NCBI RefSeq assembly: GCF_000300075.1
Contig: NC_018677.1
Coordinates: forward strand, 60,001 to 92,000
Direction of reading: 5' to 3'
DNA: 32,000 bases
Origin: Candidatus Saccharimonadota bacterium
GTDB taxonomy: Bacteria; Pseudomonadota; Gammaproteobacteria; Johnevansiales; Johnevansiaceae
This document shows positions 4,253 through 23,537 of the stretch, in pieces. The position numbers were made by a program, and so were the translations under genes. The notes beneath the pieces are model-generated. The model had not been told where the DNA came from and did not search any database. It worked only from the letters and a program-made list of their open reading frames with translations. Position 1 is the first letter of the stretch. Each line of letters begins with the position of its first letter.

Positions 4253-4435
4253 GTGAAAGGTTTGAGGCAACCCAATAACGGTACTGTGAATTAGCTTAGA
4301 AAACATTACCAAAATAATCAAAAGTTAATATTAGGTTTCTATAGAAAAAACAAAATATTTAACTCGTGATTAGATCGCCATGATAAAATATTAAGGATAC
4401 TATCATATTAAAATTTACTTTAAGAGAAACAATAG

Positions 4436-5860: not shown

Positions 5861-7791
5861 ACTTTTTTATGCTTTAGTGTTTACTTGTTTTATTTTATGC
5901 GTTATCTGTTATCTTTTTTGTTGCTTTTTTACTCTTTTTGTTATGTTGTTTAGCTTATATCTGTTTAATGTCATTTAAAACATTTGTGTTATGTTTGTTT
6001 AATGTTGTGTAAGTGGTTTAGCTGATAAATGTTGTTTATAATAAAGAAATTATGCGTTTAGTATTGAATTTATTTTTGGTAAATTGTTTTGCTTGAATGC
6101 TAATGTATAAAAAAAAAGATGTTGTAGTAAATTTATAGTTAATTAGTTAGTAAGGATTAAAATGTTAAGCAGTTAGGTTTGTTATTGGTTTTGTGTTTGC
6201 TTAATGTTAAAGCAGTTAGGTTTGTTTTTGCTGTTTATGTTAAAGAAGGTATGAAAGTTGTATCGTTTAGAAAATAGATAAACTAAAAGCTTGGTGTTAA
6301 ATTACTTATTTTATGTTAAAGGTTAAGTTTTGGATAAAACTGTTGTGTGTGATAGGTAAACTAAAAGCTTTTATGAAAATATATTATGCTTAAAGAATAG
6401 GTTGTTGCTTGTTTGTTTAAGGGTAGGTGTAGAAACAGTAAAGGTGTTGTATTTTGTATAAAAATAGAAAAGAGTAAAAGTATAAAGGGGTAAAGGTTAG
6501 TGGAGTGGTTAAATGTTAAGTAGTTAGATTGTAGGTCTTTAGGTTTGTTTATTTTTGCTTAAGGTTTGTTTGTTTTGTGAGTGGTGTTAGTGGTTAAATT
6601 AAAGGCTAAATAGTTGGTGGTTTTTTTTTTGCTTGAGATATAGGTTTGTTGGTGTATGGTATGGTTTGTAGTAAAATATAAAGGTTTTGTGATTTGTTTA
6701 TGGCTTTGTATTAAATGTTTTTGCTTAATCTTATATTTTTTTAAATTCTGTATTTATGGTTGTTGTTTTTTATAACTTAAAAAGTTAAACTCAGTTCTCT
6801 TTTTATACCAATGTGTATATAATGTTTTAAGGCTTAATGCTATAGGTTTTAGGTCGTTATGTAGTTGTGGTTTTATTTTTTGTTGACTTTTTTCTTTTTC
6901 TTTATGTTTAGTTTTTTTTATGCTTATTTAAATTCCATTTTTTTCGTTGTATTATTTTACATATAAGTGTATTTGTATCTACGTATTGTATTATAAACTA
7001 TAAAGGTTGTTGTATAAATATATAGTAAAAAAAAAGAAAGAAATGAAAGTAGGTAGATGTTGTATAGCTAAAAAAAAAGATGGTGTTAATAGTTTGTGTT
7101 CGTAAAAGGTTTGTGTTAAGAGGTGTTAGAAGTAGGGTTTGTGTTAATAAAATGTGAGTTTGTATTTAGCTGTATGTGTAAAGTGTGTAAGCTGTAAAAA
7201 TTGTGGATTACGTATTGTAATTTGTAAGCAGCTGTATGCATGGTGTAGTGTGTTTATGGTATATAGTCGGTTCTGTGGATATGGGTTGTAAATTAAAATA
7301 TTGTTGTTTTTTTTTATAGAAAACAAAAGAGCTAATAAGAAATTGATTGTTTTGTATTAACAAAAGAGCTAATAAGAAATTGATTGTTTTATATATATTG
7401 GTGTAGTGTGTGTAAAAAATATTATGTAGAAGTGGTAAGTTAGTTTTGAAAGTTTTGTTATGTATTGTGGTTGGTGTGTTATGTTCAACATATTGTAAAT
7501 AGGTGAGTTATTATATCAGTTGTATTCATATGAAAAAAGTATGGTGTAAAAGTATTAAGTTTATTGACTAATTTATATATTGTATAATTAAAACTAAAAA
7601 GTTTATGGTTAAATTAAAAGCTAGTAGCTCTAAGTTCTTAGTTTAAGGTTTATATTATAAATGCTGTAGGGTAATAGGTTTAAAGTAAACGTTTTAAAAA
7701 TGATGTTGTTAGTAAATTATGTTTGTAAAATAAATATGCTGTATGGTTAGAAAGAAAAGTAATGTAAGTAAATATTAATGGTTATATTAAA
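5861..7791. other. 1.9-kb non-coding G/T-rich, C-depleted block separating sufB from sufC
   Basis: Only one 60-aa minus-strand ORF in the track. Hand count of 6421-6660 gives G=71, C=5 in 240 nt. Made of degenerate dispersed and tandem short repeats (aatgttaa(a)gcagttaggtttgtt, taaactaaaagctt, ggttaaattaaa(g/a)gcta, tgcttaa). Confidence 0.85.
7322..7390 (+). repeat. 32-bp perfect direct repeat with 37-bp period
   Basis: aacaaaagagctaataagaaattgattgtttt at 7322-7353 and 7359-7390, separated by gtatt. Confidence 0.95.
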
Positions 7792-8529
7792 ATGTTAAAA
7801 ATAGAGAATTTAAAGGTTAATATAAAAAAAAATAATATATTACAAAGTATTAACATAAAGATAAAAACAGGTGAATTACATGTAATAATGGGGCCAAATG
7901 GGTCAGGGAAATCAAGTTTAGTATCAACATTGGTTGGAAAAGAAAATTATACAATAAAGAACGGGAAATTGTTTTTTAATGGTATTAATATTTCAGAGCT
8001 AAACATAGAAGAAAGATCTAAAGTTGGAATGTTGTTGAGCTTTCAAAATCCCATTTCTATAGCAGGCGTTAAAAATATATATTTTTTACATACAGCTTTA
8101 AATGAAAAATTAACGTATTTACAAAACGAAACAATAACTGTTTTACAAGTAATAAAAAAAATAAAACAAAAAATGAAATATTTAAAAATAGAAAAAAAAC
8201 TTTTAAATAGAGATGTAAATGAAGCATTTTCAGGTGGGGAGAGAAAAAAAAATGAACTTTTACAAATGTTATTGTTAAAACCAAAAGTCGCTTTACTTGA
8301 TGAAATAGATTCAGGATTAGATATAGATTCAATGAAAGTTGTATCAAATGGAATAAATTTGATTAAATCTAAGAAATGTTCGATTGTTTTAATTACTCAT
8401 TATAAACGTATATTAAATTATATAGAGCCTAATTTTATACATATTTTAGTTGATGGAAAGATTATAAAATCGGGTGATAAAACTTTAGTAAATGAAATAG
8501 ACCTCTTTGGTTATAAAAATTATGTGTGA
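7792..8529 (+). CDS. sufC: Fe-S cluster assembly ATPase SufC
   Basis: 245 aa. Walker A GPNGSGKSS, signature FSGGERKKNE, Walker B LLDEIDSGLDID, THY. Colinear with E. coli SufC. TGA stop. Confidence 0.97.
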   Translation: MLKIENLKVNIKKNNILQSINIKIKTGELHVIMGPNGSGKSSLVSTLVGKENYTIKNGKLFFNGINISELNIEERSKVGMLLSFQNPISIAGVKNIYFLHTALNEKLTYLQNETITVLQVIKKIKQKMKYLKIEKKLLNRDVNEAFSGGERKKNELLQMLLLKPKVALLDEIDSGLDIDSMKVVSNGINLIKSKKCSIVLITHYKRILNYIEPNFIHILVDGKIIKSGDKTLVNEIDLFGYKNYV

Positions 8530-9544
8530 TTTATTAAATATTGATGCTTATATGATTGTATTTATAGATGGTAAACTGTCAAAAAAATACTCAAATGTAA
8601 TTAACTCATGTGAAGTAAATATAATTTATTTAAAAAATAATCTTATGAATAAAGAAACTGATAAAATAAAAAAAAAATATTACACTTATAGTGGTTTAAT
8701 ACTTAATTTAAAATCAAATATAAAAATAAAAAAACCAATTTATATGTTACATATTTCAAAACAAAAAATATATAAACAAATTAATTTAAAAATATTAGTT
8801 TTGGTTGAGAAAAAGCTAAAAATACAAATTTTAGAGCATTATATAAATAAAAGTAGCAACAAACATATAAATAATATAAAAATGGAAATGAATATTAGTG
8901 ACGAGGCAAAGATTACATGGTTTCATTTAGTTGCTTTAAATACAATAGATTATTGTTTATCAAATATTGTTGTAAATCTAAGTAAATATAGTAATTGTGA
9001 GTTTTATAATATAAAGATATATAGCTATTTTTTGTATTATAACTTAGAAATTAATTTAAAAGATGAATATAGTAAATGTGATGTGGTAGGGTTGTTTTCT
9101 CCGAAAGATAAAAATTTTATAAGAAATAACATAATTATTAATCATATAACGAGTTTTACAAAATCTAATGTAAATTATAAAGGTTTAATAAGTTCGACAG
9201 GACTTTTACATTGTTATATCAACATAAAAAAAAATATAAAAAATATATATGGCATTCAAAAATCTTCAAATATATTATTGTCTAATAAGGCTACGATTAA
9301 AACAAATCCGAAATTAAAAATAAAATCAAAAGATGTGGTCTGTACACATAAAACTATTGTTGGTAAAATAAATGAAGATTATATTTTTTATTTGAGAACA
9401 AGAGGATTAACAAAACCGTTAGCTAAATCATTAATATTATTAAGTTTCATTAATGACTTTTTAACTAAAATTGAAATAAAAGCGTTTAAACGATATTTAG
9501 GTTGTACAAAAATAATAAAGTTAAAAGATGCTTATAGACAATAA
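8522..9544 (+). CDS. sufD: Fe-S cluster assembly protein SufD, N-terminally short and highly diverged
   Basis: Position between sufC and sufS. C-terminal similarity KPKLKIKSKDVVCTHKTIVGKINEDYIFYLRTRGL to SufD ([35 protein letters not shown]). The track ORF starts at TTG 8507. The in-frame ATG at 8522 gives an ATGTGTGA overlap with the sufC stop and is preferred. Confidence 0.85.
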   Translation: MCDLLNIDAYMIVFIDGKLSKKYSNVINSCEVNIIYLKNNLMNKETDKIKKKYYTYSGLILNLKSNIKIKKPIYMLHISKQKIYKQINLKILVLVEKKLKIQILEHYINKSSNKHINNIKMEMNISDEAKITWFHLVALNTIDYCLSNIVVNLSKYSNCEFYNIKIYSYFLYYNLEINLKDEYSKCDVVGLFSPKDKNFIRNNIIINHITSFTKSNVNYKGLISSTGLLHCYINIKKNIKNIYGIQKSSNILLSNKATIKTNPKLKIKSKDVVCTHKTIVGKINEDYIFYLRTRGLTKPLAKSLILLSFINDFLTKIEIKAFKRYLGCTKIIKLKDAYRQ

Positions 9545-9546
9545 AA

Positions 9547-10785
9547 ATGTTAATAAATTATATAAAACTAAAAAACAAAATTCTTAAAATAAGAGAAGAG
9601 TTTCCTATATTAAAAAATTGTATACACAAACTATATGAGTTAATTTTTTTTGATAATGCAGCGACAAGTCAAATGCCAAACAATGTAATTAACATAATGA
9701 ATGAATATAATAACTATTATAATGCTAATATACATAGAGGAATAACTTATTTATCAAAGGAAGTTACAATAGCATATGAACGCACAAGAAAAATGGTTTG
9801 TAAAAGTATAAATGCAAAATATAAAGAAGAAATTATATTTACAAAAGGAACTACAGAATCTATTAATATAATATCAAATAGTTATGGTAATTTATTAGAC
9901 AAAGGAAGTGAAATTGTAATTTCTATGATGGAACATCATTCAAATATCCTACCTTGGAAAATTTTATCAATAAATAAAGGATTTAAATTAAAAATAATCC
10001 CAGTAACAGAAACTGGGTTAATAGATATAAAAAGATTTCACAACTTATTGACACATCAAACGAAATTAGTAGTTATAACACATGTTTCTAATGTATTAGG
10101 TACAACAAACAAACTTAACATATTATCAAAAATAGTTCATAAAAAACAAGCTTTAATATTAATAGATGGAGCGCAAGCTATTTCCCATAAAAAGATTGAT
10201 GTACAAAAAATAAAGATAGATTTTTATGTTTTTTCTGCCCATAAAACTTATGGTCCAACTGGAGTTGGTATACTATATGTACGGTTAGACATCTTAAACA
10301 AGATGGATCCTTGGCAATATGGTGGAGACATGGTAAAGTATTTTAGTTTTTTTAAAGAACAAATTATATATTCAGAATTACCTTACAAATTTGAAGCCGG
10401 TACACAAACAATATGTAATATTATAGCTTATTATTCGTCTTTAAAGTGGTTAACAAAAAATTTAAAGTTGATTAAAACTTGGGAAAAACTTTTAGTATAT
10501 TTTATCATTAAAGATTTTCAACAAATAAAAACAATTCATATTATAGGAAGAAGTAAAAAAGTTTCAGTGGTATCTTTTCTTATTGAAGGTATTAATTCAC
10601 ATGATATAGGGTTAGTATTGGATAAATATGGAATTGCTATTAGAACGGGCCATCATTGTGGCCAACCCATATTAACTAATTATGGAATAAATACAGTTTG
10701 TAGAGTCTCATTTGCCTTATATAATAATTTAGAAGAAATAAACACGTTTATAAGAACATTAAAAACACTAATAAAAATATTTTAA
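9547..10785 (+). CDS. sufS: Cysteine desulfurase SufS (class V aminotransferase)
   Basis: 412 aa. FFDNAATSQ, HHSNILPW, FSAHKTYGPTGVGILY (PLP lysine), RTGHHCGQP (active-site Cys loop). Confidence 0.96.
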   Translation: MLINYIKLKNKILKIREEFPILKNCIHKLYELIFFDNAATSQMPNNVINIMNEYNNYYNANIHRGITYLSKEVTIAYERTRKMVCKSINAKYKEEIIFTKGTTESINIISNSYGNLLDKGSEIVISMMEHHSNILPWKILSINKGFKLKIIPVTETGLIDIKRFHNLLTHQTKLVVITHVSNVLGTTNKLNILSKIVHKKQALILIDGAQAISHKKIDVQKIKIDFYVFSAHKTYGPTGVGILYVRLDILNKMDPWQYGGDMVKYFSFFKEQIIYSELPYKFEAGTQTICNIIAYYSSLKWLTKNLKLIKTWEKLLVYFIIKDFQQIKTIHIIGRSKKVSVVSFLIEGINSHDIGLVLDKYGIAIRTGHHCGQPILTNYGINTVCRVSFALYNNLEEINTFIRTLKTLIKIF

Positions 10786-10786
10786 C

Positions 10787-11851
10787 TTAGGTTCTATTAT
10801 AAGTGCTAGAAATAATAGCGCCACCGAAACAAATATTATTGTGATATAAAACAATTGTTTGTCCTTCAGTTATGCCTTTTTGTTTATATAAAAAAGAAAC
10901 TTTTATGTAATTTATAAAGTTATAAACGATACACTGTTGATCTATTTGTCTATATCGTATTTTAGCATATAAAGTAATTTTATTAATTGTTTTATCAAAC
11001 GGATTTTTAAGCCAAATTACATTATTTGCAATTAAAGAATTAGTATATAAAATTTTATTTTTGGTCTTAGCGACAGATAGAATATTTTTATGTATTTTTT
11101 TTTTTATAACATACCAAACAGTTTTATTAAAAGTTTTGGTGATATTAAATCCATTAGTTTGTCCATTTGTATAAAAGAAAAGGCCTTTATGTTGTCCGAT
11201 AATAAGGTTATTTTTTGTTACGATGTTACCAAAGTTAAACGGAAAAAACTTGTTTAAAAAAGATGTAAAGTTGTGATTTCCTACAAAACAAATACCAAAA
11301 GATTCTTGTTTAAAATTTAATTTATAAAAAAGAAAGTTTGCAAGTTTACGTATTTCAAATTTATTATAAAATCCTATAGGAAAAAGAAGTTTGTGAATAT
11401 AATATTTATTTATATTATAAAGGTAATAACTTTGATCTTTATTTAAATCAAGACTTTTAAAAAACAACTTATTTGTTAATCTAATATAATGGCCAGTTGA
11501 CATATAATCAGCGTTTAATACATTAAACGCATATTTTGTTAATAAATTAAACTTTATTTCTTTATTACATAAAGAATCTGGATTTGGGGTTTTACCATAA
11601 ATAAATTCTTGAAGAAAAGTTTTAAAAACATTACTCCAATATTCAGATGTAAAATTTACAATATGTAAAACTATTTTTAATCTATTACATATATATTTAA
11701 CATCAGAAACTTCGTTTTGTAGTTTACACTGACTGTTTAACTCCCAATTTTTCATAAATAACCCTTCAACCTTATATCCTTTTTGTAACAGTAAAAACGC
11801 ACATAAAGAAGAATCTATTCCTCCAGACATACATACAATAATTTTTTTCAT
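10787..11851 (-). CDS. mnmA: tRNA-specific 2-thiouridylase MnmA
   Basis: 354 aa. PP-loop MSGGIDSS at the N-terminus, then GLFMKNW, TPNPDSLCNKEIKF, STGHY, KDQSYYL. Confidence 0.95.
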   Translation of the reverse strand: MKKIIVCMSGGIDSSLCAFLLLQKGYKVEGLFMKNWELNSQCKLQNEVSDVKYICNRLKIVLHIVNFTSEYWSNVFKTFLQEFIYGKTPNPDSLCNKEIKFNLLTKYAFNVLNADYMSTGHYIRLTNKLFFKSLDLNKDQSYYLYNINKYYIHKLLFPIGFYNKFEIRKLANFLFYKLNFKQESFGICFVGNHNFTSFLNKFFPFNFGNIVTKNNLIIGQHKGLFFYTNGQTNGFNITKTFNKTVWYVIKKKIHKNILSVAKTKNKILYTNSLIANNVIWLKNPFDKTINKITLYAKIRYRQIDQQCIVYNFINYIKVSFLYKQKGITEGQTIVLYHNNICFGGAIISSTYNRT

Positions 11852-11857
11852 AATAAC

Positions 11858-12076
11858 TTACCGCGAACGATATATTATACGACCTTTTGTAAGATCATAA
11901 TGTGTTATTTCAACTTTTACTTTATCTCCTGTTAAAATTTTTATATAATTTTTTCTAATTTTACCAGATATATGTGCTGTTATAACATGCCCATTGTCTA
12001 ATTTAACTCTAAACATGGTGTTTGGTAATGTGTCTATAATTCTTCCTTCCATTTCTATTGTGTCTTTTTTTTTCAT
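11858..12076 (-). CDS. infA: Translation initiation factor IF-1
   Basis: 72 aa. [63 protein letters not shown] is near-canonical IF-1. Confidence 0.98.
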
Positions 12077-12104
12077 ATCTTCTTACTTCCTTACATATTT
12101 TTTA

Positions 12105-12133
12105 TTGACATTTTTTACCTTTGATTTAATAAT
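12105..12133 (+). promoter_or_regulatory. Candidate sigma70 promoter for the tRNA-Glu/tRNA-Gly (and possibly yadGH) transcript
   Basis: Perfect TTGACA at 12105-12110, a 17-nt spacer, then AATAAT at 12128-12133 (5/6 to TATAAT), about 14 nt upstream of the mature tRNA-Glu 5' end. AT-rich background makes -10-like hexamers common. Confidence 0.3.
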
Positions 12134-12146
12134 ATTATCTTATTCT

Positions 12147-12218
12147 GTCCCTTTCGTCTAGTGGTTAAGACACTGCTCTTTCACGGCAGTAACATGAGTT
12201 CAATTCTCATAGGGGACA
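12147..12218 (+). tRNA. tRNA-Glu (anticodon UUC)
   Basis: Cloverleaf folded by hand. Acceptor GTCCCTT/AGGGGAC, anticodon stem CTGCT/GGCAG, loop CTTTCAC. Close to E. coli tRNA-Glu. No encoded CCA. Confidence 0.92.
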
Positions 12219-12233
12219 AAAGAAAGAAGAAAG

Positions 12234-12307
12234 GCGGAAATAGCTCAGTTGGTAAGAGTGTCACCTTGCCAAGGTGAAGGTCGCGAGTTCGAGTCTCGTT
12301 TTCCGCT
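12234..12307 (+). tRNA. tRNA-Gly (anticodon GCC)
   Basis: GCGGAAATAGCTCAGTTGGTAAGAG...CCTTGCCAAGG...GTCGCGAGTTCGAGTCTCGTTTTCCGCT is nearly identical in architecture to E. coli tRNA-Gly(GCC). No encoded CCA. Confidence 0.93.
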
Positions 12308-12318
12308 AAGAAGGAAGT

Positions 12319-13257
12319 ATGAAAAAATTAGCATTAAATATAAAAAAATTAACAAAAATTTATAAAAAAAAGAATTATGCGTTAAAAAATATAAATTTAG
12401 AGGTTAGAAAAGGAGATTTTTTTGCAATATTGGGACAAAATGGAGCAGGAAAATCAACAACAATAGGAATAATAAGCTCTTTAATAAAAAAGACTTGTGG
12501 AAAAATAAAAATTTTTGACACAGATATAGATAAAGAAAATTCAAAAGCTAAATGTAATTTAGGTTATGTATCGCAAGAATACAATTTAAATCAATTTGAA
12601 AAGGTTGAAAATATTCTTTTTACACAAGCAGGATTGTATGGCATCTCAAAGAAGTTTTCTAAAGTACGTATTTATAAATTGTTACAAGATTTAAGTTTAT
12701 TTAAACAACGAGAAATAATAGTTAAAAAGTTATCAGGTGGAATGAAAAGAAGATTAATGATTGCGCGTTCTTTAGTACATAATCCAAACTTGTTGATTTT
12801 AGATGAACCAACAGCAGGGTTAGATATTGAATTAAGAAAAAATATATGGGATTATATGTACAATATAAATAAAAAAGAAAAGAAAACTATTATTTTAACA
12901 ACACACTATTTAGAAGAAGCTGAAAGATTGTGTAGAAATGTTGCAATTATAAAGAAAGGTAGAATTATAAAAAATACAAGTATGCAATCGTTATTAAGTA
13001 AAATAGATAGAAATACATTTTTATTAGAAACAAAACATCCTTTAAAAAAAATTCCTTACATTACAGGAGTAAAATTACAAAAAAAAGATTCTTATAACTT
13101 TATAATTTCATTAAAAAAAGGAACAAAATTAAATGAGATTTTTAATATATTTGATAAAGCTAACATAGAGATTGTGGCTATGCGGAATACTTCTAATAGA
13201 TTAGAAGAAAGGTTTTTAAATATAATTGAAAAAGCTAACATAGAGTATAAGATTTGA
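12319..13257 (+). CDS. yadG: ABC-2 type transporter, ATP-binding subunit (YadG-like)
   Basis: 312 aa. Walker A GQNGAGKST, signature LSGGMKRR, Walker B LLILDEPTAGLD, THYLEEAE. SD-like aaggaag upstream. 4-bp overlap with the partner permease. Confidence 0.88.
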   Translation: MKKLALNIKKLTKIYKKKNYALKNINLEVRKGDFFAILGQNGAGKSTTIGIISSLIKKTCGKIKIFDTDIDKENSKAKCNLGYVSQEYNLNQFEKVENILFTQAGLYGISKKFSKVRIYKLLQDLSLFKQREIIVKKLSGGMKRRLMIARSLVHNPNLLILDEPTAGLDIELRKNIWDYMYNINKKEKKTIILTTHYLEEAERLCRNVAIIKKGRIIKNTSMQSLLSKIDRNTFLLETKHPLKKIPYITGVKLQKKDSYNFIISLKKGTKLNEIFNIFDKANIEIVAMRNTSNRLEERFLNIIEKANIEYKI

Positions 13258-14015
13258 AACAAAAAAGAACTATTATAGCACTTAGTACATTAATTAAACG
13301 AGAAGTTGGTAGATTTTTACGAATTTGGCCACAAACTCTATTACCATCGTCAATTACTACTACCATGTATTTTTTTATTTTTGGTAAATTAATAGGTTGT
13401 AAATTAGGTAATATGGATGGTTTAAGTTATATAACTTATATATTTCCAGGTTTAATAATGATGGCGGTAATAACAAATAGTTATTCAAATGTAGCGTCTT
13501 CTTTGTTTGGTAATAAATTTCAACGTTCTATAGAAGAGTTACTCATATCTCCTATGCCTAGTTTTTTGCTAGTAGACGGTTTTATTTTAGGGGGGTTGTT
13601 TAGAGGTTTATTAGTAGGTTTAATTGTTACTTTTGTAGCTTTACTTTTTACAAAAATAAATATTGTACATCCTTTTTTAACAATAGTAATAGTGATTTTA
13701 ACATCTATATTATTTTCATTAGCAGGTTTTATTAATGCATTAGTAGCGAAAAAATTTGATGATATCTCAATTATCCCGAGTTTTGTTTTAACGCCTTTAA
13801 CTTATCTTGGGGGTGTTTTTTATAATATAAATTTACTACCAGAGTTTTGGAAAAATTTGTCATTAATCAATCCAATAGTTTATATTGTGAATACTTTTAG
13901 ATATGGGATTTTAGGTGGCTCAGATCTTGTTATAGGAAAATCATTAATTGCAATAATTATATTTATATTATTTTTTTATATAGTTTCATTACGTTTATTA
14001 AAAAAAGGTATATAG
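13254..14015 (+). CDS. yadH: ABC-2 type transporter permease (YadH-like)
   Basis: 253 aa with a TTG start overlapping the yadG stop. REVGRFLRIWPQTLLPSSITTTMYFFIFG...FPGLIMMAVITNSYSNVASSLFGNKFQRSIEELL...FVLTPLTYLGGVFY...LNPIVYIVNTFRYG aligns along its full length with E. coli YadH. Confidence 0.88.
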   Translation: MKQKRTIIALSTLIKREVGRFLRIWPQTLLPSSITTTMYFFIFGKLIGCKLGNMDGLSYITYIFPGLIMMAVITNSYSNVASSLFGNKFQRSIEELLISPMPSFLLVDGFILGGLFRGLLVGLIVTFVALLFTKINIVHPFLTIVIVILTSILFSLAGFINALVAKKFDDISIIPSFVLTPLTYLGGVFYNINLLPEFWKNLSLINPIVYIVNTFRYGILGGSDLVIGKSLIAIIIFILFFYIVSLRLLKKGI

Positions 14016-14029
14016 TTAGTCTGAATATT

Positions 14030-14113
14030 GGAGAGGTGTCCGAGTGGACTAAGGAGCACATTTGGAAAGTGTGTAAGTTTTAGACTTCAAGGGTTCGAAT
14101 CCCTTTCTCTCCG
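14030..14113 (+). tRNA. tRNA-Ser (anticodon GGA), long variable arm
   Basis: GGAGAGGTGTCCGAGTGG...CACAT TTGGAAA GTGTG...GGGTTCGAATCCCTTTCTCTCCG. Type-II tRNA that matches the E. coli tRNA-Ser(GGA) layout. No encoded CCA. Confidence 0.9.
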
Positions 14114-14156
14114 TTAAATCAAAGAACATAAAGATCATTAGGAGAATAAAATAAAT

Positions 14157-15095
14157 ATGCAAATAGGTATTATTGGTTTAGGTAAAATGGGAGGTAATAT
14201 TTCTAAAAAATTTTTAAAAAATAAATATACTTGTTATGTTTTTGATAAAAATAGAAAGAATATAAAACACATAGAAAAAAGGGGAGCACTAGGCGTAAAC
14301 TCTTTAAAATGCTTGGTTTTAAGTTTATCGAACCCTAGAACAATTTTGTTAATGTTGCCAGCAGGGAAAATAACGGAAAAAATCATTTTAAAAATCACAA
14401 AATATATGGAAAAAGGAGATACGATTTTAGATGGGAGTAATGGGTATTTTAAAAAAGATATCAAAAGATCTGAACAATTATTTATAAGAGGAATTAATTA
14501 TCTAGATGTAGGTGTTTCAGGGGGAATATGGGGTTTAAAACGAGGTTATTGTATGATGATCGGAGGAAATAAAAAGATTTTTGAAAAAAAAACGACTATA
14601 TTTTTTAGTTTATCTTCAGACAATTCAAAATGTTATATGTATTGTGGTAAAGTTGGTTCAGGGCATTTTGTTAAAATGATACATAACGGTATAGAGTATG
14701 GAATGATGCAATCTTATGCCGAAGGTTTTGATATAATTCATAATATAAACAACAAACATGTACTTTATAAACATCGTTATAACTTAAATATATATGATAT
14801 TTCTGAAATATGGCGTAGAGGAAGTGTAATTGAGTCTTGGTTGTTAGATTTGATTTCTATTTCTTTAGCGCACGATGTCACTCTCAATGATTTTAGTGGT
14901 AAAGTGAATGATTCAGGTGAAGTGCGATGGCTTGTACAAACAGCTTTAGAAGAATCAATGCCCTTAGACGTTTTAACTACCTCTTTATATGTTCGTTTTA
15001 AATCGAGGTATAATAATAGATATGGTGATAAATTGCTATCAGCTATGCGCAAACAGTTTGGTGGCCATATAGAACTTTTATATCCTTCTTCCTAA
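14157..15095 (+). CDS. gnd: 6-phosphogluconate dehydrogenase (decarboxylating), short YqeC/Gnd-like form
   Basis: 312 aa. Rossmann IGIIGLGKMGGN at the N-terminus, GSGHFVKMIHNGIEYGMMQSYAEGF signature, RRGSVIESWLLDL, and C-terminal RKQFGGH. Confidence 0.8.
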   Translation: MQIGIIGLGKMGGNISKKFLKNKYTCYVFDKNRKNIKHIEKRGALGVNSLKCLVLSLSNPRTILLMLPAGKITEKIILKITKYMEKGDTILDGSNGYFKKDIKRSEQLFIRGINYLDVGVSGGIWGLKRGYCMMIGGNKKIFEKKTTIFFSLSSDNSKCYMYCGKVGSGHFVKMIHNGIEYGMMQSYAEGFDIIHNINNKHVLYKHRYNLNIYDISEIWRRGSVIESWLLDLISISLAHDVTLNDFSGKVNDSGEVRWLVQTALEESMPLDVLTTSLYVRFKSRYNNRYGDKLLSAMRKQFGGHIELLYPSS

Positions 15096-15152
15096 TTACT
15101 TCTTTTTTTTTTACTTGTTGTTTTCTTTTTTCTTTATAGTCTTTTTTATACC

Positions 15153-15193
15153 AACATCAAACATCAAACATCAAACATCACCTATCACCTATC
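15153..15193 (+). repeat. Heptamer microsatellite (aacatca)x4 followed by (cctatca)x2
   Basis: aacatca at 15153, 15160, 15167 and 15174, then cctatca at 15181 and cctatc at 15188. Confidence 0.95.
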
Positions 15194-15410
15194 TAACATC
15201 TATAACTTCTTACTAACAACCAAATATCAACTTCTTACTACCAACATCTAACAACAAAATGGCTAACTAACTAACTAAAACATATAAACACCAACTACTA
15301 AACTATAACCATATAAATACAATAATATAACATATAAACACAACAAACTAAATAACGAAACACAAAAATATAACAGAAGACAAGATACTAAACTTCAAAA
15401 TTATAACTAG

Positions 15411-15445
15411 AAACAACAAACAACAAACAACAAACATCAAACATC
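15411..15445 (+). repeat. Heptamer microsatellite (aaacaac)x3 followed by (aaacatc)x2
   Basis: Five consecutive 7-mers read directly from the sequence. Same motif family as 15153-15180. Confidence 0.95.
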
Positions 15446-16164
15446 TACCTACAAACTACTTAAATACACACATATAACTACAAACTAATAACTTATAAAC
15501 ATATTATATAAAAAATAAATAATAATAACATATATATGTATAAAATATAAAAAACTATATATAAATACAAACTTTTAAAAGCAACAAATAACATCTAAAT
15601 AAAAACAAACTAACAACTCTAACCTCTAACATTCTTTATTCATACATATAACATCTAATAACTAACATAACTTTAATATTACATATTAGTAATTAATATA
15701 ACCGAAACCAATAAAACAACACCAGCAAATATATAAATTCTAAATAACATAGAACAATATAACGAAATAACAATATACCATATATAAACAACATATATGG
15801 AAAGATAAAGGCAGATAAAAAAAAAGAAAGCAAACATATGATATCTAATAACATCATCTAAATAACATTAAACATATAACTTAGAAGAAAAGAAACATCT
15901 AACAGCAAAAATTACACTAAACATATAACATAAATAAAAAAGCTATAAAAAGGGAAAGATAATTAAGAACAACACATCTAAACACTAAATATTAAATATA
16001 ACAGGTAATAAAAAACAAAAAATTATAAATGCTAACAGCTATAAACATAAAAACTTAAGAATTAAGAAAAATAAAACTGCAAAAAACAAAGAATCAGATG
16101 AGCAATACTGCAAAACTACACTATATAAGTAAATAACACAGAACAAAGCATGCCACATAAACAG

Positions 16165-16235
16165 GCGAACATAGTTTAAGGGTAAAACATTAGCCTTCCA
16201 AGTTAATGATACGGGTTCGATTCCCGTTGTTCGCT
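16165..16235 (+). tRNA. tRNA-Gly (anticodon UCC), glyT-like
   Basis: GCGAACATAGTTTAAGGGTAAAACATTAGCCTTCCAAGTTAATGATACGGGTTCGATTCCCGTTGTTCGCT parallels E. coli glyT. Anticodon loop CTTCCAA. Confidence 0.9.
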
Positions 16236-16242
16236 AATAATC

Positions 16243-16315
16243 GCTCATGTAGCTCAGTTGGTAGAGCACACCTTTAGTAAAGGTGAGGTCAACGGTTCAA
16301 TTCTGTTCATGAGCT
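16243..16315 (+). tRNA. tRNA-Thr, thrT-like body with anticodon AGU (A at wobble position 34)
   Basis: GCTCATGTAGCTCAGTTGGTAGAGCA CACCT TTAGTAA AGGTG AGGTC AACGG TTCAATT CTGTT CATGAGC T. Aligns position-for-position with E. coli thrT (CACCC TTGGTAA GGGTG), so the anticodon is AGT at 16276-16278. Confidence 0.85.
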
Positions 16316-16333
16316 CAAGCAGTTATAGTTGTA

Positions 16334-16406
16334 AGGTCAGTAGCTCAATTGGTAGAGTAGCGGTCTCCAAAATCGAAGGGTGGGGGTTCAATTCCCTCCT
16401 GGCCTG
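16334..16406 (+). tRNA. tRNA-Trp (anticodon CCA)
   Basis: AGGTCAGTAGCTCAATTGGTAGAGTAGCGGTCTCCAAAATCG...GGGGGTTCAATTCCCTCCTGGCCTG. Loop CTCCAAA. Canonical position just upstream of secE. Confidence 0.92.
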
Positions 16407-16426: not shown

Positions 16427-16771
16427 ATGAAAAAAAACAAGCAAAGCAAAAAAAAAGATTATTTAAAGTTGTTGTTTTCTATTCTGAATATATTAATTGC
16501 AATGTATTTATTAAAAAAAAATAAATATATATTTTTATGTTTGTATAGTTTGAGTTTATATTTAATGTTAGTTACTGTAAAAGGAAAAGAATTAAGAATT
16601 ATAGGAAAGATTGCAAAAAAAGAAATACAAAGTGTAGTGTGGCCAAAAAAAAAAGAAATAATAAAGACAACAAGCGTAGTTTTATTAATTATATTTATAA
16701 TAAGTATTATAATATGGACATTAGATACTTTAATTAGTGGATTAATAACAATTATGATAAATCAAAGCTAG
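16427..16771 (+). CDS. secE: Preprotein translocase subunit SecE
   Basis: 114 aa, hydrophobic. C-terminal EIQSVVWPKKKEIIKTTSVVLLIIFIISIIIW matches the conserved SecE TM3 region. Lies between tRNA-Trp and nusG. Confidence 0.9.
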   Translation: MKKNKQSKKKDYLKLLFSILNILIAMYLLKKNKYIFLCLYSLSLYLMLVTVKGKELRIIGKIAKKEIQSVVWPKKKEIIKTTSVVLLIIFIISIIIWTLDTLISGLITIMINQS

Positions 16772-16786
16772 TTAAAGGGAAAACAA

Positions 16787-17344
16787 GTGAAAAAAAGATG
16801 GTATGTTGTTAATATATATTCAGGTTATGAAAAACAAGTTATAAGTGATTTAAAAACTAGAATTAAAAGATATAAATTAGAAACAGCATTTGGAAAAATG
16901 ATAGTACCTTCAGAAACTTTGTTTGAAAAGATAATAGTACCTTCAGAAACTTTGTTTGAAAAGATATCAGGTAAAATACGTAAAAGTGACCGGCAATATT
17001 ATCCAGGATATATATTAGTAGAAATGGAATTAAATGATAAAACATGGAATTTAGTAAATGAAACAAAAAGAGTAGTTAGATTTATAGGATCAAATGTAAA
17101 AAAACCTGCCGTTATAAAAAAAAATGAATTTAAACAAATACTAAGTAATGTAAAAAAACATATAGATCAAAAACTTTTAAAATTAGGAGAAAGAATAAGA
17201 GTGCTAGAAGGTCCTTTTGCTGAGTTTACAGGTATTGTAGAAGAAATAAATTATGAAAAAAAGAAAGTTAAAATTAGTGTTTTAATTTTTGGCAGATCAA
17301 CTCCAGTAGAAATAGACTTTTATAAAGTAATTAAGGATATCTAA
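16787..17344 (+). CDS. nusG: Transcription termination/antitermination factor NusG, carrying an 11-aa internal tandem duplication
   Basis: 185 aa with a GTG start. [25 protein letters not shown], and KOW region [41 protein letters not shown]. Confidence 0.96.
16901..16966 (+). repeat. Perfect 33-bp tandem duplication, in frame within nusG
   Basis: atagtaccttcagaaactttgtttgaaaagata at 16901-16933 and 16934-16966, identical. Encodes [11 protein letters not shown] twice. Confidence 0.97.
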
Positions 17345-17345
17345 A

Positions 17346-17783
17346 ATGATTGATAAAAAAAAAATAATAAATGTAGTTAAAATACAAGTAGAAGCAGGTA
17401 AAGCAAATCCTAGTCCACCAATAGGACCTATCTTAGGACAACAAGGAATAAATATAATGGAGTTTTGTAAGAAATTTAATTTAGAAACTCAACATATAGA
17501 AACTGGTATGCCAATTCCCGTAATAATAACGATATATTCAGATAGAAGTTTTACTTTTCGGATAAAAAATCCCCCTGTGTCAAGTTTATTAAAAAAAATC
17601 ATTGGTATAGAAAAAGGATCAAGTGAAAATAATAAAAAAAAAATAGGAAAAATAACAAATAAACAAATAAAAGAAATAGCAAAAACTAAAATGCATGATA
17701 TGAATGTAATAAAAATAAAATCAGCCATAAATTGTATAAAAGGTACAGCAAAAAGTATGGGTTTAGATATAATAGATGATTAA
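17346..17783 (+). CDS. rplK: 50S ribosomal protein L11
   Basis: 145 aa. [35 protein letters not shown] is canonical L11. Confidence 0.98.
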
Positions 17784-17803
17784 ATAAAACGAGGCAGGTA
17801 AAA

Positions 17804-18493
17804 ATGGGACCGTTTTCCAAAAGAAAAAAAATAATACAAAATAATATTAACAAACATCAAAACTATAAAATAAAGGAAGCGATAGAACAGTTAAAAAAAT
17901 ATAGTTTAGTAAATTTTGTTGAAACAGTAGAAGTTGTTATAAAATTAGGAAAAAAAAAAGTTTTAAATAAAGTAATAAAAAATACATTAAATATACCTTA
18001 TGGTTTAGAGACTAATAAAAAAAATATTGTGTTTGTAAAAACAAAGGAACTTAAAGAAAACGAAATAAAAAGTTTATTAAAGTTAGGTGTAGATACATTA
18101 AGTCTAGATGAAATCAACAACGCCAAAAACAAATATAAAATTCATTATATTTTATGTGAATCAAAAAGTGCAGATATATTAAGACAAGCACATTTAAAAG
18201 CAAAAGTATACATGATAAATAACGAAAATCTTACTAAAAATATTTTAAACAAAGTTAACGAAATAAAAAAAGGAAAAATCACTTATTGTGTAAATAAACA
18301 TGGTAGAATAAACACAGTTATAGGAAAAATAACTTTTTCGATAAAAGAAATTAAAAGAAATTTAAAGGCTTTAATAAAAGATGCTTTAATAAAAAAATCA
18401 GTATGCAATACAAGTAATATATCAGATATATATATATCGACAACAATGGGTCCAGCATTAAGGCTTGATAAATGTGAAGTTAGATTTTTGTGA
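17804..18493 (+). CDS. rplA: 50S ribosomal protein L1
   Basis: 229 aa. SKRKKIIQNNINKHQNYKIKEAIEQLKK...FVETVEVVIKLG parallels the E. coli L1 N-terminus. Operon position fits. Confidence 0.95.
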   Translation: MGPFSKRKKIIQNNINKHQNYKIKEAIEQLKKYSLVNFVETVEVVIKLGKKKVLNKVIKNTLNIPYGLETNKKNIVFVKTKELKENEIKSLLKLGVDTLSLDEINNAKNKYKIHYILCESKSADILRQAHLKAKVYMINNENLTKNILNKVNEIKKGKITYCVNKHGRINTVIGKITFSIKEIKRNLKALIKDALIKKSVCNTSNISDIYISTTMGPALRLDKCEVRFL

Positions 18494-18529
18494 TACTGGC
18501 ATACAATCACTCATAAAAGGAGTAAGAGT

Positions 18530-19030
18530 TTGAAAAAAAAAATAAAAAACAAAGCATTAATAATAAAAACAATAAATAAAAATATAATTGAATCAACATC
18601 AATTATGGTAGTAAACTATAAGTATATTAATTCAATAAATATGAATGTATTATATACAACAGCAAAAAAAAAAGATGTTAAGTTGTATGTTGTTAGAAAT
18701 AGATTACTTATCAAAGCAATAAAAGGAACAAAATATGAAGGTTTAAAGGATTATGTGCAAGGACAGATAATGCTATGTTTTTCTAAAAAAAATATAAATG
18801 ATAGTTTGGTGTTATGGAAAAAATTAAAATTAAAAGAAGAAAAAATAAAAACATTATTTTATGAAGGTAATTTAATAAAAACAGATAAAAGAATAATTTT
18901 AGGAAAAATAAACATATCTGATACAAAGAAAATATTGTTAAAAACAATGATAATGTTAAAGATAAATACAATAGGCAGATTAATATATATATTAATGCTT
19001 TTAATAGAAAAAAGGGAATTAGAAAAATGA
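18530..19030 (+). CDS. rplJ: 50S ribosomal protein L10
   Basis: 166 aa with a TTG start preceded by aaaggag. Position between rplA and rplL. 4-bp overlap (ATGA) with rplL. Confidence 0.9.
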
Positions 19031-19392
19031 ATAAAGAAGAGATTATAGAAATTTTATCTAAAATGAATGTATTAGAATTGATAGAGTTAGTGTCTGAAAT
19101 GGAAAAAAGATTTAAGATTAACAAAGATAATATATTTAATAATAACACTAATAATAATAATATTAAGAAAAAAGAGAAAAAGTTAGAATTTGATTTGATT
19201 TTAAAATCAATCGGTGAAAAAAAAATTGGCGTAATAAAAATTGTCCGTGAGATAACAGGATTAGGGTTAAAAGACGCTAAATTAAAAGTAGAAAGTGCAC
19301 CTGTAACTATAAAAGAAGCTTTAACTAAAGAGGATGCTGAAAAAAATAAAATAAAATTAGAAAGTGTTGGGGCAAAAGTAGAAATTAAGTAA
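19027..19392 (+). CDS. rplL: 50S ribosomal protein L7/L12
   Basis: 121 aa. The C-terminal domain [56 protein letters not shown] is canonical. Confidence 0.97.
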
Positions 19393-19469
19393 GCAAATAA
19401 AAATAAACACAATATAGTTATTAACTATAAATTTTGTAAATGTATAAGAAGTATAGGAGTGTATTATAG

Positions 19470-22400
19470 ATGGGTTCTTCATACACGAAAAAAACCAATA
19501 TTCGTAAAATTTTTGGTAAAATACCTCAGATAATGGAGGTACCTTATTTATTATCTATTCAAATAGAATCATATAAAAATTTTTTAAAAAAAAAAACAAA
19601 TATAGGAATAAACGCAGCATTAAATTCAATATTTCCTATAAAAAGTTTATCAGGAAAAGCATTATTAGAATACGTGGATTATAACTTAATGAAGCCAGTT
19701 TTTGATGTGAAAGAATGTAAAATAAGAGGTATGACATATTATTCTAATTTGCGTGTTAAAATGAGGTTAGTTATTTTTGATGAAATAGAAAAACAAAGAA
19801 TTATAAAATATGTAAAAGAGCAAGAAGTATATATGGGTGATATACCTTTAATAACAAAAACTGGTACATTTGTAATTAATGGAACAGAACGGGTAGTAGT
19901 ATCACAATTACATAGAAGTCCTGGTTTGTTTTTTGATAATGATCATAATAAAAATTATTCAATAGGCAAATTAATTGCTACTGCAAGAATAATACCTTAT
20001 CGTGGTTCTTGGTTTGATTTTGAGTTTGATCAACGTGATAATATTTTTGTACGAATAGATAGAAGAAAAAGAATCCCTGTAACAGTTCTATTACGCGCTT
20101 TAGGTTTAAATAATGAAAAAATATTAAATTTGTTTTTTGAAATAAATAGCTTTAAAATTGCAGAGAAAAATATTATTTATTGGGAAAATTTTAAGCCATA
20201 TAAAATAAGAGGGGACGTATCAAGTTTAAATATAGTAGATCCTAAATGTAAGAAAATTATAGTCGAAGAAGGTTGTAGAGTTAATAAAAATTTGGTTTTA
20301 AAATTAAACGAATTAAAAATAAAAAAAATAAAAGTACCAATAGAATATTTAATAGGAAAAATATTAGTTAATAAACAAGTTAATAAAATAACTAAAGAAG
20401 ACATATATAACAGTAATACAAAACTAAATTTAAAAAAAATAAACAAATTATTAAAAAATAAAGTAAAAAAAATAAATACAATATATACAAAGGATTTGGA
20501 TACAGGTTCGTTAATTTATGAAACTATAAAGGGTGATACAACAACAACTCAAATGGAGGCAATATTGGAGATATATAGTATTATGCGGCCAGGAGAACCA
20601 CCAAATAAAGATTCAGCAGAATTAATATTTAAAAGTTTTTTTTTGTCGCTTGAGAAATATAATCTGTCAGCAGTTGGTAGAATGAAAGTTAATAGTAGAC
20701 TAAATAAAAAAAATAAGAAAGGTAGTGGAATAGTAAATGCTGAAGATATAATAGATGTGACAAAAGAATTAATACAAATTAGAAATGGTTTTGGCGAAAT
20801 AGATGATATAGATCATTTAGGAAATAGACGTATTCGTAGTGTTGGAGAATTGGCAGCAAATAATTTTAAATCAGGATTATTGCGAGTTGAACAATCTATA
20901 AGAGAAAGGTTGTTGTTAACAGAATCTGATGAAAAACTAAGGCCTAAAGATCTAATAAATGTTAAACAAATCACAGCTGCAATGAAAGAGTTCTTTATTT
21001 CAAGTCAATTATCCCAGTTTATGGATCAAACAAATCCTTTAGCTGAAATTACTCATAAAAGAAGGATCTCAGCGTTAGGACCAGGGGGGTTAACACGAGA
21101 TAGAGCAGGATTTGAAGTGCGGGATGTACATTCAACTCATTATGGAAGGTTATGCCCTATAGAAACTCCAGAGGGACCAAATATAGGGTTAATAAATTCT
21201 TTGGCGACATATAGTAAAATAAATAAATATGGATTTTTAGAAACACCTTATAGAAGAGTAGAAAACAGGAAAGTTTCGAAGGAAGTTATAAAATTATCAG
21301 CAATAGAAGAAGCAGAATATGTGATAGCGCAAGCTTCGGTAAGAGTAAATAAAAACGAAGAATTAAAAGATGAATTAGTGCAAGTAAGAAGTAAAGGGGA
21401 AACTACTTTTATGCAAACAGATAAAGTAAATTTAATGGATGTTTCACCTTGTCAAATAGTTTCAATAGCGGCTGCTTTAATTCCATTTTTAGAACATGAT
21501 GATGCTAATAGAGCATTAATGGGCTCAAATATGCAAAGACAAGCAGTTCCAACATTAATAGCAGAAAAGCCATTAATAGGTACTGGGATGGAAAGAATAG
21601 TAGCAAAGGATTCAGGCGTTTGTATCAAGGCGAAACGTAGTGGTATTGTAGAAGTTGTAGATTCAAAAACAATTGTTATTCGTGTGAATGAAAATGCTTT
21701 AGATGGAAATGAATATTGTGTAGATTTATATAATTTAAATAAATATATGCGTTCAAATCAAAATACATGTCAAAATCAAAGAACAATAGTAAACGAAGGT
21801 GACATTATAGAAGTAGGAGATATTTTAGCAGATGGTACAGCCGTAGATACCGGAGAGTTGGCTTTAGGACAAAATATGAGAATAGCATTTATGCCTTGGA
21901 ATGGTTATAATTATGAAGATTCGATTATTATTTCAGAAAGAGTAGTTAGAGAGGATAGATTTACTACAATTCACATTCAAGAAGTAACATGTATATCACG
22001 CGATACTAAGTTAGGTCATGAAGAAATAACATCAGATATACCAAATGTAAGTGAAGCATCGTTAAGTAAATTAGATGAATCTGGCATTGTATATATTGGA
22101 GCGCAAATAAAAGCAGGAGATATTTTAGTAGGTAAAGTTACTCCAAAAGGGGAAAAAAAATTAACACCAGAAGAAAAATTGTTACGTGCTATATTTGGAG
22201 ACAAAGCATCAGAGGTTAAAGATACATCTTTACGGGCAACTACAGGTACTATAGGAACAGTTATAAATGTACAAATATTTACAAGAGATGGCATAAAAAA
22301 AGATTTAAGAGCAAGGGAAATAGAAAAAAGGAAGATAGAAGAAATAAGTAAGGATTTAAAAAAAGCATATCGTATAACAAAAGAAATAACAATAAAAAGA

Positions 22401-23537
22401 TTAAAAACAGTAATAACAGGTAAAGAAGCATTAAAAGGGCACAAAATACAGAAAGGTGAGATTGTAAATGATGAGTATTTTCAAAAAATAAAAAATACAA
22501 AACAATGGTATAAATTAAGAATGAAAGATGATCAGTTAAATAAAAAAATAAAAAAAACAAAAGAGCAAATAGAAAAACTACATGAAGAAAAGGAAAGGTA
22601 TTTTATAGAAAAAAAAAGAAAATTAATTCAAGGTGATGATTTAGCTCCAGGGATTTTAAAAGTTGTCAAAGTTTTTTTAGCGATAAAAAGAAAAATACAA
22701 CCAGGAGACAAAATGGCAGGACGACATGGAAATAAAGGAGTAATATCTGCTATTAAACCTATAGAAGATATGCCTTTTGATAAAAAAGGTGAACCAGTAG
22801 ATATAGTACTTAATCCATTAGGAGTTCCGTCACGTATGAACGTTGGACAAATTTTAGAAACACACCTTGGAATGGCGGCTCATATGTTAGGTATAAAAAT
22901 AAATATTTTGTTAAAAGAAAAAACAAAGGTAAAAGAAATAAGAATATTGATAAAAAAAATTTTTAATAGAATAGGATTTTGTAAACAAGAAAACTTAGAA
23001 CGTTTACAAGATGAGGACATAATTAGATTAGCGAATAAATTTTCAAAAGGAGTTCATTTAGCAACACCAGTTTTTGATGGAGCAACAGAAAAAGAAATAA
23101 AAGCATTGCTTAAATTATCAGGAGTTCATAAATCTGGACAAGTACCTTTATATGATGGCTGTACTGGAGAAAGGTTTGATAGAAAAGTAACAGTAGGTTA
23201 TATGTACATGTTTAAATTAAATCACTTGGTTGATGATAAAATGCATGCAAGGTCAACAGGCTCATATTCGTTAGTTACTCAACAACCATTAGGTGGAAAA
23301 GCTCAATTTGGAGGACAACGTTTTGGTGAAATGGAAGTATGGGCATTAGAAGCTTATGGTGCTGCATATACTTTACAAGAAATGTTAACAGTAAAATCAG
23401 ATGATATTGGAGGGCGCACAAAAATGTATAAAAGTATTGTTGATGGAGATTATACAATGCAGGCTAGTATGCCGGAATCATTTAATGTGTTAGTAAAAGA
23501 AATAAGATCATTAGGTATAGATGTAGAAAAAGAATAA
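19470..23537 (+). CDS. rpoB: DNA-directed RNA polymerase subunit beta
   Basis: 1355 aa. YSYTKK..IRK.FGK...VPYLLSIQ at the N-terminus, plus [59 protein letters not shown]. Confidence 0.99.

Follow-up and report, generated by a model that had tools for sequence, protein, structure and literature searches.

A nearly G-free spacer between gnd and a tRNA cluster in Candidatus Portiera aleyrodidarum, probably built by heptamer slippage and decay at a rearrangement junction

We analyzed a gene-free spacer of 1068 nt at positions 15096-16163 of a 32,000-nt stretch of bacterial DNA (NC_018677.1, positions 60,001 to 92,000; hereafter the window), where it separates a gnd-like gene from a tRNA-Gly/Thr/Trp cluster. 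The genome is that of Portiera aleyrodidarum from Bemisia tabaci, as CP016304.1 (Candidatus Portiera aleyrodidarum, B. tabaci; 352,068 bp) had 0 mismatches to the window over the 11,529 nt compared, and exact matches to the gnd protein (in Portiera of B. tabaci) and to the sufC protein are present in several complete Portiera genomes. Its closest relatives in a species-level genome collection are Portiera from other whiteflies. No open reading frame (ORF) of at least 55 aa overlaps the spacer, the longest being 54 aa on the minus strand, in agreement with an earlier reading of the bare sequence (the initial annotation) that had described it as 1.07 kb without an ORF. Downstream of the tRNA cluster lie secE and nusG, then rplKAJL and rpoBC (NCBIfam). 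The features of the locus are as follows.

14157..15095, + strand: gnd-like NAD(P)-dependent 6-phosphogluconate dehydrogenase, 312 aa (NCBIfam PRK09599, E 1e-120), the upstream flank
15096..15152, + strand: T-rich leader of 57 nt (T 70%), directly 3' of the gnd stop codon and of the opposite (keto, G/T-type) polarity
15153..15194, + strand: (AACATCA)x4 then CCTATCA CCTATCT, the most length-variable array of the spacer; AACATCA part at 15153-15180, 100% matches in Tandem Repeats Finder (TRF)
15177-15193, + strand: ATCACCT x2.4 (TRF)
15263..15278, + strand: (CTAA)x4 tetramer array (TRF)
15411..15445, + strand: (AAACAAC)x3 (AAACATC)x2 by direct reading; TRF calls (AAACAAC)x4.7 at 15411-15443, 96% matches
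15446..16163, + strand: A/C-rich body of decayed repeats with dispersed motifs, G rising toward the tRNA genes
15614..15628, + strand: deletion scar, ACTAAC joined to AACTCTAACCTC, located by alignment with other strains and ending in CCTCTAA-type direct repeats
16164..16406, + strand: tRNA-Gly(tcc), tRNA-Thr(agt) and tRNA-Trp(cca), the downstream flank (ARAGORN, Rfam RF00005)

Both heptamer arrays named in the initial annotation were borne out by TRF, (AACATCA)x4 as a perfect repeat and (AAACAAC)x3(AAACATC)x2 as read. In the pair of CCTATCA units described next to the first array, only the first copy is exact, the second ending in T (CCTATCT). Copies of ACATCTAA had been listed at seven sites; we found that five are exact (15244, 15591, 15651, 15895, and 15974) and that those at 15196 and 15841 are one-mismatch variants. 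Five exact copies compare with 0.21 expected in dinucleotide shuffles of the block (maximum 2). AACATATAAACAC is present at 15279 and 15329, as had been noted, and ACATCTAA, AACATAT, and ATAACAT are dispersed through the body (15446-16163) above shuffle levels. Repetition of k-mers within the block exceeds dinucleotide shuffles with z of ~6-8.5, and with z of 1.3-3.3 after removal of the intact arrays. Moreover, lag 7 gives the strongest autocorrelation of the whole block when scored against dinucleotide-preserving shuffles (z 9.2; lag 14 reaches z 6.4). With the intact arrays left out, lag 7 still ranks first, alone or jointly, in all three segments examined (z 2.3; 3.1 at 15446-15800; 3.3 at 15801-16163). 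The rpoB gene, used as a control, showed period 3 only. Together, the period-7 arrays called by TRF at 96-100% matches and the lag-7 peak show that the block carries tandem repeats of a 7-bp unit.

The base composition of 15096-16163 is A 0.530, C 0.173, G 0.049, and T 0.248. The near absence of G from the + strand had been reported from a hand count of 15181-15420, and our recount returned the same numbers (C=54, G=7), against about 40 G expected from the whole-window G fraction of 0.165. The statement that the block opens with the heptamer arrays did not hold, because the T-rich segment of opposite polarity at 15096-15152 comes first. The keto fraction is 0.80 and then 0.63 in this leader and 0.20 from 15156, so that polarity switches sharply at 15152/15153. 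The leader holds TTGTTGTTTT, which has the flavor of the complement of the AAACAAC array, and three inverted-repeat matches (I2, I4, and I5) pair the leader with 15411-15434. A comparable T-rich leader and polarity switch follow gnd in the related genome L033, a divergent Bemisia-type Portiera, possibly that of B. afer, recovered from European Nucleotide Archive (ENA) metagenomes.

The same spacer could be recovered from independent NCBI, JGI, and Logan assemblies, among them L001 (CP007563), L002 (a JGI PQ2WF contig), and L093 (CP016343). Six spacer lengths occur across strains (1061, 1068, 1230, 1260, 1318, and 1396 bp), and strain alignments showed that indels within the heptamer arrays are all multiples of 7 (7, 14, 21, and 42 nt). 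Between-strain indels are therefore enriched for 7-bp steps inside repeats. The AACATCA array has 4 copies in the window strain and 3 in L003, its region is 21 nt shorter in L001, L002, L086, and L094, and in L093 it has been remodeled to AACATCA x2, CACATCA x3, CGCATCA, and CAAATCA. The copy number of AAACAAC varies from 1 to 3, with differences of 7 and 14 nt, and one additional CTAA copy is present at the tetramer array in L086, L093, and L094. At ~15614-15628 other strains carry ~190 bp of unique A/C-rich sequence together with 0 to 26 units of a (CCTCAAA/CCTAAAA)n array; the window strain has lost sequence here by a deletion between CCTCTAA-type direct repeats. TRF counted 14.4 copies of CCTCAAA in CP007563 and 26.1 in the JGI assembly L002; L086 has 0, that is, the ~190-bp segment without the array. 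The window, L003, L001, and L002 are nearly identical outside repeats. Array units differ from one another by A<->C changes (AACATCA versus CACATCA, AAACCTA versus AAACCTC). Events of other sizes also occur, namely the CTAA unit and 5-nt, 6-nt, and single-base indels. A comparison of array copy number across strains had been proposed as a check on the slippage idea, and the arrays proved not to be invariant: the spacer spans 1061-1396 bp and array length steps in sevens. Together with the lag-7 signal that remains outside the intact arrays, these multiple-of-7 indels support the proposal that units of ~7 bp expand by slippage and then decay.

The assemblies themselves also show irregularities at this spacer. 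JGI scaffold L005 has runs of N at L005:3050-3085 and 3534-3595, exactly at the (AACATCA)n array and the (CCTCAAA)n site, and Logan contigs L004 and L006 end within the spacer, away from any array. Short-read assembly thus has trouble in this spacer.

Substitutions in the spacer fit neutral evolution. Between the window and the more diverged L086, 12 of 1032 aligned spacer sites carry a substitution (1.16%), compared with 0.91% at third codon positions and 0.45% at all coding sites. Among five strains (L089, L090, L092, L093, and L094, aligned to window 1-16400), variable sites per site amount to 0.0145 in this block, 0.0248 in the block between sufB and sufC described below, 0.0269 in other spacers, 0.0088 at third codon positions, and 0.0014 at first and second codon positions. 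A permissive Rfam scan (E<=1) returned only the three tRNAs and two sub-threshold chance matches overlapping tRNA genes, and the first 300 nt of the A/C-rich body folded no better than shuffles (minimum free energy -2.2 kcal/mol, z -0.09). A scan of the spacer for promoters and terminators found none that was convincing and none near the tRNA genes; consensus promoter-like sites numbered 3, against 9.9 in shuffles. The gnd gene of L033 is 87% identical and L033 has the same gnd-to-tRNA-Gly junction, and the spacer gave no collinear alignment with the orthologous L033 spacer, only low-complexity matches. Polarity and motif types (AACATCTAA, AAACAAC) are nonetheless kept in the L033 spacer, and the 17-mer AACAAACAACAAACATC, which spans the AAACAAC/AAACATC array junction, is common to both. 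The Rfam scan, the fold z, the lack of a collinear L033 alignment, and the near-neutral substitution all speak against a structured non-coding RNA or a member of an Rfam family. A conserved RNA at this locus, which the initial annotation had set against its own slippage proposal, is thus not indicated, with no Rfam family and no predicted structure in the block.

A second block, a compositional mirror of the first, lies in the same run of co-oriented genes.

5861..7791, + strand: sufB-sufC spacer, 1931 bp, G/T-rich (G 0.206, C 0.045, T 0.444)

Its autocorrelation has z 6.0 at lag 7 and z 3.6 at lag 14, and its length across strains ranges from 1867 to 1931 bp, through indels of 14 nt, of 21 nt, and of sizes that are not multiples of 7. 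The initial annotation had likened the tRNA-side block to the reverse complement of this spacer. The likeness stands for composition and period, and fails for a shared repeat family: shared 7- to 11-mers between the block and the reverse complement of 5861-7791 showed no excess over composition-matched shuffles (z -1.9 to +1.1), nor did the longer L002 version of the spacer share a k-mer excess with the sufB-sufC block. As a positive control, the orthologous L033 spacer did share an excess of 10-11-mers with the block (z 2.6-2.8). The k-mer result removes the kinship part of the claim and leaves its other parts untouched. Because different spacers share no motifs in this test, their common period does not come from one ancestral repeat. 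We also considered homology of the block to the L033 spacer, to a gene-free block of Singhiella simplex Portiera, and to the sufB-sufC block by blastn with word size 7, and rejected all three, since the matches ran in many registers at ~60% identity, as is typical of low complexity. GC skew is -0.56 in the tRNA-side block and +0.64 in the sufB-sufC block. At 4-fold degenerate sites of the co-oriented genes, GC skew is only +0.29 (AT skew +0.14), and background strand skew was therefore rejected as the source of either polarity. Two further observations concern the sufB-sufC spacer: it interrupts a suf operon that is normally tight, and it contains a 37-bp x2 repeat at 7322-7394 (TRF, 97% matches).

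The history of the tRNA-side spacer could be read from Portiera of other whiteflies. In Pealius mori Portiera, a stable genome of ancestral type, gnd overlaps dnaX by 11 nt in the order gnd-dnaX-dapA-aceE-aceF, and the tRNA locus reads cyoE-tRNA-Tyr-(3 nt)-tRNA-Gly-tRNA-Thr-tRNA-Trp-secE. Singhiella simplex Portiera retains dapA after gnd, with 5,044 bp of gene-free DNA in the dnaX slot. In both B. tabaci Portiera and L033, tRNA-Tyr has been separated from the cluster, and tRNA-Gly has gnd as its upstream neighbor. The spacer is thus expanded relative to stable Portiera, with 1068 nt against an 11-nt overlap on one side and a 3-nt gap on the other. The dnaX gene is absent from its ancestral position in the B. 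tabaci Portiera lineage. Searches by tblastn with P. mori DnaX, DapA, AceE, and AceF against the window and related loci left no remnant in the spacer; for DnaX in particular, the block gave no match even with a cutoff of E<=10, and L001, L033, and L035 gave none with E<=1. A metagenome scan with P. mori DapA, directed at the current upstream neighbor of dapA, returned only distant marine relatives. With practically no ancestral spacer on either side and no surviving similarity to DnaX, the 1.07 kb is effectively new DNA. The junction replaced dnaX, which is itself among the replication genes lost in this lineage.

Together, these results support that the block is a selectively neutral spacer of Portiera aleyrodidarum that is new at a rearrangement junction and was built by ~7-nt slippage and decay, a reading to which we give a probability of about 0.85. 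In the Bemisia lineage, dnaX has been lost from this site, tRNA-Tyr has been split off, and gnd is now connected to tRNA-Gly through the newly arisen spacer. We infer that replication slippage of short tandem units, overwhelmingly of 7 nt, lengthens and shortens this spacer: arrays would expand and gain point substitutions, variant units would expand in turn, and old arrays would in the end be scrambled, or removed by deletion between short direct repeats. Arrays newly seeded from neighboring sequence would inherit its strand composition of A, C, and T with almost no G. Nearly all substitutions in this lineage are transversions; of these, A<->C and G<->T keep a strand within its A/C or G/T class, and only A<->T would erode the skew. 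The function of the block would be spacing only, its 3' end probably serving also as the promoter of the tRNA operon. From the literature, the loss of dnaQ, dnaX, dnaN, holA, holB, ssb, and mutL is the likely cause of slippage. That each block inherits its composition is also something we infer, and the reading that we prefer.

Several points weigh against this account. Indels of 4, 5, 6, and 1 nt and the ~190-bp deletion with its adjacent array show that heptamer slippage is not the sole process. The promoter of the tRNA-Gly/Thr/Trp-secE-nusG unit was not located by our scan and is presumably carried by the 3' end of the spacer (the 15446-16163 body). A period shared by spacers with distinct motifs needs a genome-wide cause, and the 7-nt step itself has no explanation. 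Furthermore, the polarized substitutions are few (10 in this block and 18 in the sufB-sufC block), and strand-asymmetric mutation is still compatible with them.

Among the alternatives, the one that survives best, though we consider it improbable, is that the A/C polarity is the fossil of an inversion: the body from 15153 onward would have been made as G/T-rich sequence and flipped when gnd and tRNA-Gly were joined, leaving the leader as an unflipped remainder. The sharp switch at 15152/15153 and its counterpart after gnd in L033 would fit such a history, as would the resemblance of the leader to the complement of the AAACAAC array, the G/T-rich state of the Singhiella block after gnd on the same strand, and the many inversions of B. 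tabaci Portiera (PMC3673631). However, the block shows no sequence homology to any of the G/T-rich blocks, and one inversion cannot yield the observed flanks, for which at least two are needed. Moreover, the tRNA-Ser/gnd spacer of L033 (L033:6095-7000, ~900 bp, lineage-specific) is A/C-rich and nearly G-free (A 60%, C 20%, and G 1.9% overall, most bins of 150 nt containing 0-0.7% G) in ancestral gene order; in the window the same spacer is only 42 bp (14115-14156). Therefore, A/C polarity arises in place, without inversion.

Slightly less probable still is that G was depleted by strand-asymmetric mutation pressure, through replication or transcription, acting on unconstrained DNA, and that repeat ancestry has no part in it. 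Entire blocks of 1-5 kb are strand-pure despite many different motifs, all three large Singhiella blocks that we saw are G/T-rich on the gene-sense strand, and C is scarce on the sense strand of the sufB-sufC block, a spacer necessarily transcribed along with the suf genes. On the other hand, skews of opposite sign occur in one co-oriented gene run whose flanking 4-fold sites reach only +0.29, and the sense strand of L033 carries A/C-rich blocks where the gene context is not rearranged. Polarized changes in the sufB-sufC block are balanced, with T>A about equal to A>T per site and T>G and G>T at 3 each, which argues that mutation erodes the skew and does not build it. Seeding of new arrays from neighboring sequence in a neutral spacer is the account that we retain.

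It is very unlikely that the block is a decayed dnaX pseudogene. That dnaX directly follows and overlaps gnd in P. mori Portiera, is missing here, and had a similar size (1098 versus 1068 bp) would suit this origin; the negative tblastn searches, a period of 7 and not 3, strain lengths that range from 1061 to 1396 bp, and the purine-rich, not G-free, composition expected in this genome of a gene remnant on its sense strand all stand against it. Equally remote is a functional role. Repeats of 7 bp in promoters tune expression in other bacteria, and at contingency loci, for example the 7-bp promoter repeats of the Haemophilus influenzae hmw genes, copy number changes by slippage. The block could likewise act as a long leader, an UP-element-like A-tract, or a non-coding RNA for tRNA-Gly/Thr/Trp-secE-nusG, with array length tuning expression, and it does lie directly upstream of an essential unit for which some promoter is required; however, the variable arrays overlap no ORF and lie 720-1010 nt away from the tRNA genes on their upstream side, substitution runs at about the neutral rate, no conservation can be aligned with L033, there is no Rfam family or predicted structure, promoter-like consensus sites are rarer than in shuffles, and ancestral Portiera has only the 3-nt spacer between tRNA-Tyr and tRNA-Gly upstream of tRNA-Gly. 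In contingency loci, by contrast, arrays lie in promoters or reading frames and expression is switched under selection, whereas the present arrays are far from gene starts in a neutral, kilobase-long spacer.

The neutral, slippage-built spacer is one instance of a published genome-wide feature of B. tabaci Portiera and not a new type of element. Sloan and Moran (2013) reported that this genome is only 69% coding and that microsatellites have proliferated in its intergenic regions, with "a dramatic spike at 7 bp" in repeat-unit length that is unlike other insect symbionts and a between-strain indel spectrum enriched for 7-bp changes inside repeats (PMC3673631). These expanded intergenic regions represent the same phenomenon in the same organism, and our locus differs from them in nothing essential. 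The lineage has lost dnaQ, dnaN, dnaX, holA, holB, ssb, mutL, and ruvC, and its architecture is associated with rearrangements (PMC3673631); loss of dnaQ and other replication and repair genes is also documented in PMC12911140, and later papers confirm the architecture (PMC5322561, PMC7821994, PMC12911140). What we add is a published peculiarity re-derived from raw sequence, in which runaway microsatellites of 7 bp and swollen spacers go together with an eroded replication machinery, and a clean worked example of array birth, unit mutation, re-expansion, deletion, and full sequence turnover across dated relatives. The depletion of G or C on a single strand of a spacer seems to be undescribed: the word 'skew' is absent from the text of PMC3673631 and PMC7821994, and in PMC5322561 GC skew figures solely as a genome-wide pattern that B. 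tabaci Portiera has lost.

The Portiera of Singhiella simplex, a whitefly of the same tribe, is a sister case with expanded intergenic regions of its own (Santos-Garcia et al. 2020, PMC7821994). Its dnaQ is pseudogenized, 40% of the genome is intergenic, contigs end in repeats, and the published table lists only 3 tandem repeats (PMC7821994). As at our locus, the dnaX slot after gnd has been replaced by gene-free repeat DNA. We located three gene-free blocks in this genome (CACTJB01), at L035:7928-12971 (5.0 kb), L088:1-2332 (at least 2.3 kb), and L088:2584-7121 (4.5 kb). All are rich in G and T, most bins of 250 to 500 nt containing 0-3% C, and their autocorrelation stands out at lag 5 (z 26.6), with pentamers such as TGTTA, TGTAA, and TGTTG. 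The Singhiella blocks thus differ from ours in their period of 5 instead of 7, in their larger size, and in a G/T-rich sense strand, the opposite polarity. Tremblaya princeps, Hodgkinia, and Uzinura likewise combine long spacers with signs of genome instability in ancient symbionts, and some of these low-density genomes are without functional dnaQ (PMC7821994). They differ in that few or no tandem repeats are tabulated for them and no heptamer microsatellite load is reported (PMC7821994).

Substitutions among B. tabaci Portiera strains are ~90% transversions, of the classes A<->T, G<->T, and A<->C. Among the five strains, transitions and transversions number 0/28 at third codon positions, 5/87 in other spacers, 6/37 in the sufB-sufC block, and 2/12 in this block, with 13 transitions and 136 transversions in all spacers together. 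In an independent region from secE to rpoB (window 16427-23344 versus L086), we counted 5 transitions against 29 transversions. The strand class is preserved by A<->C and G<->T changes, which fits the unit variants seen in the arrays (AACATCA/CACATCA, AAACCTA/AAACCTC). We found no paper linking Portiera and transversions in a literature text search, and neither a transversion-only spectrum nor the 5-nt versus 7-nt contrast appeared in the papers searched.

Since spacers of one genome share a period but not motifs, and since the period differs between lineages, a genome-wide mechanistic cause is indicated. A tentative suggestion, which we would not yet favor, is that strand purity and a lineage-specific step (7 nt for the Portiera of Bemisia and 5 nt for that of Singhiella) are direct read-outs of a crippled replisome. 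A nearly transition-free spectrum (A<->T, A<->C, and G<->T only) would keep strands within the A/C or G/T class, and the slippage step would be set genome-wide by the polymerase assembly that is left once the clamp, clamp loader, SSB, and proofreader are gone. If true, this would account for a common period among unrelated spacers that have no motifs in common. The wider question concerns the origin of the slippage step and the restriction of each spacer to three of the four bases on a strand, and the 5-nt versus 7-nt contrast and the ~90% transversions make it testable with existing genomes and reads.

Other loci in the window carry features of related interest. The long spacer upstream of hisZ contains an 84-aa ORF (1327-1581) with a weak IPPT (miaA-type) Pfam match in the annotation-independent gene call of CP016304, probably the remnant of a miaA pseudogene; the spacer around it (1-2022) shows no clear 7-nt periodicity. 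In the hisZ-sufB spacer, which is without 7-nt periodicity and without strong skew, TRF found repeats at 3833-3955 and 4201-4252, of 42 bp x2.1-2.4 (up to 97%) and 26 bp x2.0 (100%). The nusG gene (16787-17344) contains a 33-bp in-frame tandem repeat at 16879-16966 with an 11-residue unit. NusG is accordingly 185 aa long in the window (one extra copy), 196 aa in L086 (two), and 174 aa in other Portiera (none), so that repeat expansion reaches an essential gene too. This polymorphic nusG repeat, the C-free period-5 spacers of Singhiella Portiera, and the ~90% transversions may all be new. Finally, the anticodon of tRNA-Thr (16243-16316) is AGT (A34) in B. tabaci and Singhiella Portiera, whereas P. 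mori Portiera and L033 have GGT; it is unusual for bacteria to have A34 in tRNAs other than tRNA-Arg.

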